Assembly: GCF_016903815.1 (NCBI RefSeq)
Contig: NZ_CP069973.1
Direction: 5' to 3' (one strand)
DNA from: Escherichia coli
GTDB lineage: Bacteria; Pseudomonadota; Gammaproteobacteria; Enterobacterales; Enterobacteriaceae
DNA length: 64,000 nt
Position 1 is the first letter of the stretch; the number at the start of each line of letters is the position of its first letter. The notes under the pieces were generated by a model, which worked only from the letters and a program-made list of their open reading frames with translations, was not told where the DNA came from and searched no databases. The position numbers and the translations under genes are program-made. Positions 37,927 through 38,635 of the stretch are shown here, piece after piece.

Positions 37927-38635
37927 TAAATATCCTCCGGCATAGCCGGAGGTTTTTCAAATGCGCCTATAAGGCTCTCTTACCAGCCGCGCCCTAACAG
38001 GCGCACACGATCTGACATTTGCATCCAACTTCGTTACTTACGGCCCGTAAACGGGCTGCCCGGATAGGGAATCGATAACTGCTCTCCCATTTTATCCTCT
38101 TCAAGCTGGTGCTTTATGTAATCCTGTATCTTCGCCGTGTTCTTACCCACCGTATCGACGTAGTACCCTCTGCACCAGAACTCCCTGTTCCTGTATTTGA
38201 ATTTCAAATCACCAAACTGCTCGTAAAGCATCAGACTGCTTTTCCCTTTCAGATATCCCATAAAGCCGGATACGCTCATTTTGGGCGGGATCTCCACAAG
38301 CATATGGATATGATCTGCACAGCATTCAGCTTCCAGAATCCGTACACTTTTCCACTCACACAGCTTTCTCAAAATACTGCCTATTGCTCTACGCTTCTCT
38401 CTGTAGAACACCTGTCTTCGGTATTTTGGCGCAAAAACTATGTGATATTTACAGTTCCATCGGGTGTGCGCTAAGCTCTTTTCGTTCCCCATTGGGACCC
38501 CCTTTTGATTTCTTGTTTGACACTTGCAGTTGCCAGACCGCAAGGTGTTTTAACAAATCAAAAGGGGTTTTAATAACTGGCTTAAAGCTGAAAGCTTTCC
38601 GGAACCCCCAGCCTAGCTGGGGGTTTTCTGTGCAC
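37927..38635 (-). mobile_element. IS200-family (IS200/IS605) insertion sequence, about 0.7 kb, boundaries approximate (+/-10 bp)
   Basis: encodes IS200 TnpA; subterminal hairpin cccccagcctagctggggg (38606-38623) and RBS-sequestering inverted repeat (38498-38509 / 38556-38567) upstream of tnpA; hairpin cctccggcatagccggagg (37934-37952) at other end; fills yfeW-yfeX intergenic. Confidence 0.8.
38034..38492 (-). CDS. tnpA: IS200 transposase TnpA (Y1 HuH transposase)
   Basis: ORF 38034-38543; start MGNEKSLAHTRWNCKYHIVFAPKYRRQ (152 aa), HuH motif HIHMLV, near-identical to Salmonella IS200 TnpA. Confidence 0.95.
   Translation of the reverse strand: MGNEKSLAHTRWNCKYHIVFAPKYRRQVFYREKRRAIGSILRKLCEWKSVRILEAECCADHIHMLVEIPPKMSVSGFMGYLKGKSSLMLYEQFGDLKFKYRNREFWCRGYYVDTVGKNTAKIQDYIKHQLEEDKMGEQLSIPYPGSPFTGRK

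Follow-up and report, generated by a model that had tools for sequence, protein, structure and literature searches.

An intact IS200C insertion sequence lying directly after the yfeX terminator, between pbp4b (yfeW) and yfeX, in a lineage of Escherichia coli

The closest described system to the locus analysed here is IS200C of Escherichia coli, a 709-bp element with a single tnpA gene (product WP_000526135.1 in RefSeq), subterminal hairpins and T-rich flanks, whose insertions have been tabulated as lying 'within a T-rich region' (PMC6963479). The prototype of the group is IS200 of Salmonella enterica, and IS200 orthologs are more than 90% identical (Ellis et al., PMC5435999). Four factors keep the expression of TnpA from the Salmonella element very low: a left-end (LE) terminator and a stem-loop masking the ribosome-binding site, together with Hfq and the antisense sRNA art200 (PMC4513863, PMC5435999). 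The LE hairpin is a bidirectional Rho-independent terminator that stops approximately 85% of incoming transcripts, and the second hairpin prevents 30S ribosome binding (Salmonella; PMC4513863, PMC5435999). Terminators are enriched just upstream of IS200/IS605 elements (bioRxiv 10.1101/2025.07.22.666184); the association of the LE with a preceding terminator is thus already published.

More distant relatives include IS608 and ISDra2, whose homologous Y1/HUH TnpA proteins have solved structures (E = 4e-19 to 2a6m and 2e-16 to 2xm3 for the protein studied here). These elements likewise have subterminal hairpins, lack terminal inverted repeats, insert 3' of a short target and carry a guide 5' of the hairpin foot; the rule for the IS200/IS605 family is that this guide pairs with the cleavage site (PMC6006769). 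They also have tnpB and use the targets TTAC or TTGAT, whereas in IS200C tnpA is the sole gene and a T-run beside a terminator hairpin serves as the target. REP/BIME sequences, mobilised via RAYT (TnpA-REP), involve the same Y1/HUH superfamily; in contrast, the element described here lacks REP sequence and supplies an IS200-type transposase of its own.

The analysed window is a stretch of 64,000 nucleotides from E. coli contig NZ_CP069973.1 (RefSeq assembly GCF_016903815.1). It very probably contains an intact, autonomous copy of IS200C (IS200 group, IS200/IS605 family), inserted in the spacer between pbp4b (yfeW) and yfeX in one E. coli lineage. The features of the locus are as follows, in window coordinates.

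36622 to 37923, plus strand: pbp4b (yfeW), intact (RefSeq annotation transferred from the matched sequence L004; Pfam Beta-lactamase).
37927 to 38635, minus strand: IS200C insertion sequence, with the LE at 38635 and the right end (RE) at 37927; ends common to six other copies.
37934 to 37957, no strand assigned: RE subterminal hairpin, CCTCCGGC-ATA-GCCGGAGG, followed by TTTTT (read on the plus strand; consensus scan, inverted repeat and fold).
38034 to 38492, minus strand: tnpA, encoding a 152-aa Y1/HUH transposase (Pfam, NCBIfam and PDB relatives).
Approximately 38484 to 38573, plus strand: predicted antisense sRNA art200, with coordinates by homology only (PMC4513863).
38498 to 38567, minus strand: stem-loop sequestering the Shine-Dalgarno sequence, equal to IS200 nt 69-138 (fold and Rfam RF01405).
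38603 to 38625, no strand assigned: LE subterminal hairpin, AACCCCCAGC-TAG-GCTGGGGGTT (10-bp perfect inverted repeat; Rfam model positions 1-23).
38636 to 38668, minus strand: native yfeX terminator and insertion target, with its hairpin at 38668-38641 and TTTTT at 38640-38636; present in the empty sites L001, L002 and L003.
38692 to 39591, minus strand: yfeX (porphyrinogen/Dyp-type peroxidase), intact (RefSeq; Pfam Dyp_perox_N and Dyp_perox_C).

Comparison with other copies showed a complete 709-bp IS200C in the minus-strand orientation. The same exact 709 bp were found in six further IS200C copies at unrelated loci (next to yagU, and at a prophage lom-family gene, luxS-emrB, an integrase gene, carB and sbcB-plaP), with divergence directly outside; the ends at 37927 and 38635 therefore hold, apart from the ambiguous flanking dinucleotide described below. 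Nucleotide identity to other annotated E. coli IS200C copies was 98.7-99.9% across the whole 709 bp. An identical locus between pbp4b (yfeW) and yfeX is annotated in RefSeq as 'IS200/IS605-like element IS200C family transposase', and the name used here rests on that PGAP annotation of a 100%-identical locus, i.e., it is indirect. The length and the T-rich flanks match the IS200C table of PMC6963479, no difference from IS200C was detected, and only the pbp4b-yfeX site is particular to the lineage. The element is thus already known: an ordinary, lineage-specific insertion of the well-characterised IS200C. The original prediction had called an IS200-family element on the minus strand, and its family assignment, orientation, ends and regulatory anatomy all hold, with similarity to IS200 extending well beyond tnpA to the whole 709 bp, in IS1541 of Yersinia pestis as well as in the E. 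coli copies.

IS1541 is 87.5% identical to the present copy over 713 nt, a TT on both sides included, and has the same hairpins and the same type of site, 3' of a hairpin and T-run. It differs in its length (708 bp), its LE (GTGCCC versus GTGCAC), a much higher copy number and the occurrence of tandem dimers. In Y. pestis NCTC5923 (L105, L106 and L108), head-to-tail IS1541 dimers were seen in which the RE, ...GGAGGATATTTA, is joined to the LE, GTGCCC..., via a single TT.

The sole open reading frame with a family match in the 709-bp element is tnpA; there is no tnpB, and the other listed open reading frames are overlapping out-of-frame or antisense runs. The 152-aa product is of the IS200 type, as had been claimed, and matched Pfam Y1_Tnp (PF01797) with E = 3.8e-38 and the NCBIfam equivalog transpos_IS200 (NF033573) with 147.7 bits against a cut-off of 55. 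It aligned to the solved IS200/IS605 TnpA structures 2ec2, 2a6m and 2xm3 (E = 4e-23 to 2e-16), and the translation contains H61-I-H63 (the HUH motif), the catalytic Y125 and Q129; Y125F is the catalytic-dead control mutant of Ellis et al. (PMC4513863). The protein is identical to WP_000526135.1, as it is in copies at other loci (L004 and L006). Its score against NCBIfam REP_Tyr_transpos was below the threshold (32 bits versus a cut-off of 80), and no REP flanks were found around the element in the window.

The element begins GTGCAC... and ends ...ATATTTA, and these termini do not form an inverted repeat. Subterminal hairpins are present at both ends, on the same strand, each with an 8-bp GC-rich stem and a 3-nt loop, and the two stems differ by two compensatory pairs. 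The LE hairpin has a folding energy of -19.6 to -20.7 kcal/mol. Both hairpins are presumed to be recognition hairpins of TnpA. By homology with IS608 and ISDra2, TnpA would bind them, release the top strand in the form of a single-stranded circle and re-insert this circle 3' of a short target sequence, which at the present locus would be the T-tail of the yfeX intrinsic terminator.

Between the LE hairpin and tnpA lies a long leader stem-loop in which CCCCUUUUGAUUU is paired with AAAUCAAAAGGGG, burying the Shine-Dalgarno sequence AAGGGGGU (MFE -37.6 kcal/mol, z = -3.9). The Rfam family RF01405 (STnc490) matched 38502-38625 on the minus strand with 146 bits, against a gathering score of 56. Inverted repeats, folding and the Rfam match thus bear out the subterminal hairpins and the stem-loop sequestering the ribosome-binding site upstream of tnpA that had been described from the sequence. 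When 38635 is numbered as nt 1, the stem-loop occupies nt 69-138 and the start codon lies at nt 144, in agreement with the leader positions published for Salmonella IS200 (PMC4513863). Salmonella IS200 also has the same terminator hairpin at approximately nt 11-34, the catalytic Y125 and the art200/STnc490 region; by published coordinates, on which this comparison is made, it is 707 bp long, 2 bp shorter than the present copy.

The plus strand of the leader region would encode the antisense sRNA art200, as judged from its correspondence to the Salmonella element. The fold of this strand was also stable (-35.4 kcal/mol, z = -4.7), and it is followed by UUUUAAU. A sigma-70 scan of 37700-38900 found no promoter-like site, the promoters of tnpA and art200 included. 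As a separate observation, RF01405 'STnc490' scored 146 bits on the tnpA-sense strand versus only 19.8 on the other, although the sRNA published with this name, art200, runs antisense to tnpA. The orientation captured by the Rfam model appears to be that of the tnpA 5'UTR.

The element lies between convergent genes, with yfeX transcribed in the same direction as tnpA, and the yfeW stop codon is 3 nt ahead of the IS right end. The gap that separates the stop codons of yfeW (37923) and yfeX (38692) measures 768 bp here versus 57 bp in the empty-site genomes, and the element takes up approximately 92% of it, which agrees with the earlier statement that it fills almost the whole gap. In the closest empty site (L001, 99.3% flank identity) the sequence reads CAG TAA T AAAAA GGCCAGTC, and in the occupied site it reads CAG TAA T AA, then the 709 bp, then AAAAA GGCCAGTC. 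The net insertion is accordingly 711 bp, being the 709 bp of the element and an AA/TT dinucleotide that may be placed on either side (37925-37926 or 38636-38637). On the tnpA strand, TT preceded the LE in 30 of 31 copies and followed the RE in all 31 (IS200C, IS1541 and an Edwardsiella relative). A constant TT is indistinguishable from a 2-bp duplication in a comparison of empty and filled sites, and only one copy (L113) is informative. As this copy has CT on the LE side and TT on the RE side, it hints that the TT belongs to the RE and that there is no target duplication.

The native terminator, which lies 6 nt past the yfeW stop in the empty-site genomes, has a hairpin of -18.2 kcal/mol on the minus strand and -23.6 kcal/mol on the plus strand. 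After the insertion, the yfeX terminator keeps its hairpin and five T. The insertion looks neutral for yfeW and yfeX, both open reading frames being intact, and transcription that passed the yfeX terminator would next meet the terminator in the LE. In K-12-type genomes, the same spot carries an insert of approximately 183 bp with REP/BIME-like palindromes (L003, positions ~895-1140, equivalent to window 37924-38668), with a copy of the native terminator hairpin (GGCCAGTCAGTAATGTTACTGGCTGG) on either side of it. With IS200C in the present lineage and this REP/BIME-like insert in K-12-type genomes, two kinds of Y1/HUH-mobilised DNA have used the same site.

Read along the tnpA strand, the order at the locus is yfeX, the GC-rich hairpin (38668-38641), TTTTT (38640-38636) and the left end. 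A hairpin followed by five to nine T was found directly 5' of the LE in seven of seven E. coli copies, and the annotated upstream genes (lom-family, emrB, carB, plaP and yfeX) all run in the same direction as tnpA. Placement of the LE after the T-tail of a co-oriented terminator is typical of the IS200 group and illustrates 'safe-harbour' targeting neatly. A wider scan used the exact 19-mer of the LE hairpin and one genome per species, and returned at least 120 stretches. The matches listed included IS200-like elements of Yersinia pestis (IS1541), Vibrio, Brenneria, Dickeya, Edwardsiella and Pluralibacter, as well as of Oxalobacter, Mailhella/Desulfovibrio, Bacillota, Saccharibacteria and Elusimicrobia; no Salmonella copy was among the matches listed.

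The flanks were scored by a strict terminator rule (stem, loop and T-tail), with the raw MFE distribution alongside, as follows.

Unique LE flanks, among the matches listed: 83 of 104 (80%) pass the strict rule; mean MFE -19.4 kcal/mol.
Control, random 45-mers from the same loci: 1.4% pass; mean MFE -8.3 kcal/mol.
Control, all T5 runs from the same loci: 6.5% pass; mean MFE -5.9 kcal/mol.

Most of the 21 flanks failing the strict rule are visibly hairpins with a mismatch, the flank in the window itself included. An MFE-based rule, in which the structure has to end 3-12 nt before the junction, undercounts (59 of 104), because upstream A-tracts pair with the T-tail and lengthen the stem.

An A-rich stretch precedes both hairpins of the element (GAAAA at the LE and GAAAAA at the RE), and both cleavage sites are T-rich (TTTT beside the LE and ...TTATT at the RE). 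The placement at the yfeX T-tail fits the pairing rule of guide and target. A preference that extends beyond the T-run to the hairpin suggests, in our own reading of the sequences, that the terminator mimics the RE: a terminator consists of an A-tract, a GC hairpin and a T-tract, and the RE consists of GAAAAA, a hairpin and ATATTTATT. With such mimicry in single-stranded DNA, TnpA would join the LE after the T-tail of the terminator. We therefore put forward, tentatively and as a possibility that we hold to be somewhat doubtful, that the IS200 group actively picks terminators as pseudo-right-ends, that new copies are thereby insulated and harmless, and that the RE inserted here would be a stronger terminator for yfeW. 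A site just after a host terminator would add insulation to the low expression of TnpA. If the choice of terminators is true, it could account for the tens of copies attained by an element that is nearly silent. The association as such, apart from the proposed recognition of the hairpin, was published before, in aggregate (bioRxiv 10.1101/2025.07.22.666184) and as insertions into T-rich regions (PMC6963479).

The location after terminators might instead reflect purifying selection only, with insertions into other T-runs being lost and no preference for a hairpin target. Intergenic sites just past terminators are neutral, an A-rich guide alone would account for the preference for T-runs, and part of the association could be due to harmless insertions having survived, and not to a choice of target. 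As the whole explanation this is unlikely, as only 6.5% of all T5 runs at the same loci have a terminator-like hairpin ahead of them versus 80% of the LE flanks. Moreover, the order is always hairpin, T-run and LE, and AT-rich intergenic DNA offers many harmless T-runs that are free of hairpins.

Several further observations were made on the hairpin itself. The 19-nt LE hairpin CCCCCAGCTAGGCTGGGGG was exact in IS200-like elements of very distant taxa (L011-L130), and the adjoining 12 nt on its outer side differ between lineages (GTGCACAGAAAA, GTATAGAGAAAA, GTGAAACGAAAA and GGTTAAAAGAAAA). In the Ruminococcus MAG RUG14215 (L093-L103), the same hairpin is present at both ends and the ends are mutually inverted repeats, AATAAGCAT-hairpin-TATTTCTTTAACGG... 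and ...CCGTTAAAGAAATA-hairpin-ATGCTTATT, with the loop TAG in the same strand sense at both. In Dickeya undicola (L082, positions ~700-730), a solitary palindromic remnant of the LE, TTGTCTATAGAAAA-hairpin-TTTTCTATAGACAA, lies after a terminator-like hairpin and has no tnpA.

To establish the distribution of the insertion, complete E. coli genomes were searched; the flanking sequence was matched in 5425 of 5426. With 600-bp junction queries and a hit criterion of at least 80% coverage, the insertion at yfeW-yfeX was found in 146 genomes on the RE side and 147 on the LE side. A 2109-bp query (window 37227-39335), under the same criterion, was matched in 176 of 5426. The site is thus occupied in approximately 2.7-3% of complete E. 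coli genomes and empty in almost all. The counts from the long query and the junction queries differ by approximately 30 genomes, which presumably carry another arrangement at or near the locus; a nearby IS200C copy joined into the same match is one possibility. IS200C-like sequence was present in 3110 genomes, at 1-35 matching places each, plasmids included. The carriers of the insertion form two groups by the number of matching places, 1-5 or 17-30. In WCHEC005784 the copy at yfeW-yfeX is the only IS200C, and this copy may be the ancestor of the expansions in related lineages.

The import of the insertion beyond annotation is little, pbp4b and yfeX being undisrupted, and its value is that of a strain or lineage marker. 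The suggested use as a strain marker is borne out: the insertion is a clean presence/absence marker for a group of E. coli lineages (approximately 2.7% of complete genomes). Its intactness and its polymorphism between genomes suggest that this copy is able to transpose.

That the copy is an inactive relic, unable to transpose and serving only as a passive lineage marker, is improbable. The transposition of IS200 is extremely rare in the laboratory, where the element is mostly dormant (PMC4513863), and the insertion is stably common to approximately 146 genomes. Against this, the open reading frame is full length with intact catalytic residues, copies at other loci encode the very same protein (WP_000526135.1), and both ends are identical to those of other copies. 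The 1-30 matching places in the carriers also point to recent expansion in some lineages. The description of IS200 as transpositionally quiet hence stands for its laboratory behaviour, but not for those lineages of E. coli in which it has expanded.

Far less probable still is a domesticated, host-serving tnpA fixed at this locus. The insertion is 100% identical over the junction-spanning queries in many carriers, the locus holds the sole IS200C copy of WCHEC005784, and host regulatory roles have been reported for IS200 RNAs in Salmonella (PMC5435999). However, the occupancy counts largely refute a fixed gene, with the site filled in only 146-176 of 5426 genomes, and the close relative with 99.3% flank identity is empty. 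The same 709 bp are also present at many other loci and on plasmids, with both ends and all cis elements intact. The few genomes occupied and the copy number of 1-35 show that the element is mobile over evolutionary time and polymorphic, and is not a fixed domesticated gene.

As for the termination of yfeW transcripts, the RE hairpin (37934-37952) and its TTTTT (37953-37957, plus strand) are terminator-like on both strands in the consensus scan. The sequence is present in all seven E. coli copies examined and in IS1541, and is missing from all three empty sites; the hairpin at 37934-37957 therefore belongs to the IS and is not chromosomal. It begins 10 nt past the yfeW stop, and the native hairpin is followed on the plus strand only by TTAAAT. 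As the RE hairpin has TTTTT and the native one only TTAAAT, the RE hairpin and TTTTT would probably act as the terminator of yfeW, and it is plausible that its transcripts now stop there.

That the hairpin and T-run at 37934-37957 are instead the native yfeW terminator, with the IS just beyond, is suggested by their position 10 nt from the yfeW stop and their canonical intrinsic terminator look on the plus strand, and can be dismissed almost entirely: the sequence lies within every IS200C copy at unrelated loci and within IS1541, and the empty-site alignment refutes it, the three empty sites reading yfeW stop, TAAAAA and the GGCCAGTCAG hairpin with no trace of the 37934-37957 sequence. The original prediction had placed an end hairpin with a T-run (37934-37958) where a yfeW terminator would be, and had proposed that the insertion may have replaced yfeW termination or may now provide it. 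The hairpin and T-run are present, and provision of yfeW termination by them is plausible; they did not replace the native hairpin, which still exists at 38641-38668, now 711 bp further from yfeW.

We also noted variation at the yfeW side of the locus across the species. Some E. coli genomes matched the yfeX side of the query only (hits H77-H80), and approximately 336 genomes had no match to a query made of the last 300 bp of pbp4b and 300 bp of the IS200C right end. These two observations suggest that a minority of strains lack pbp4b or its 3' end.
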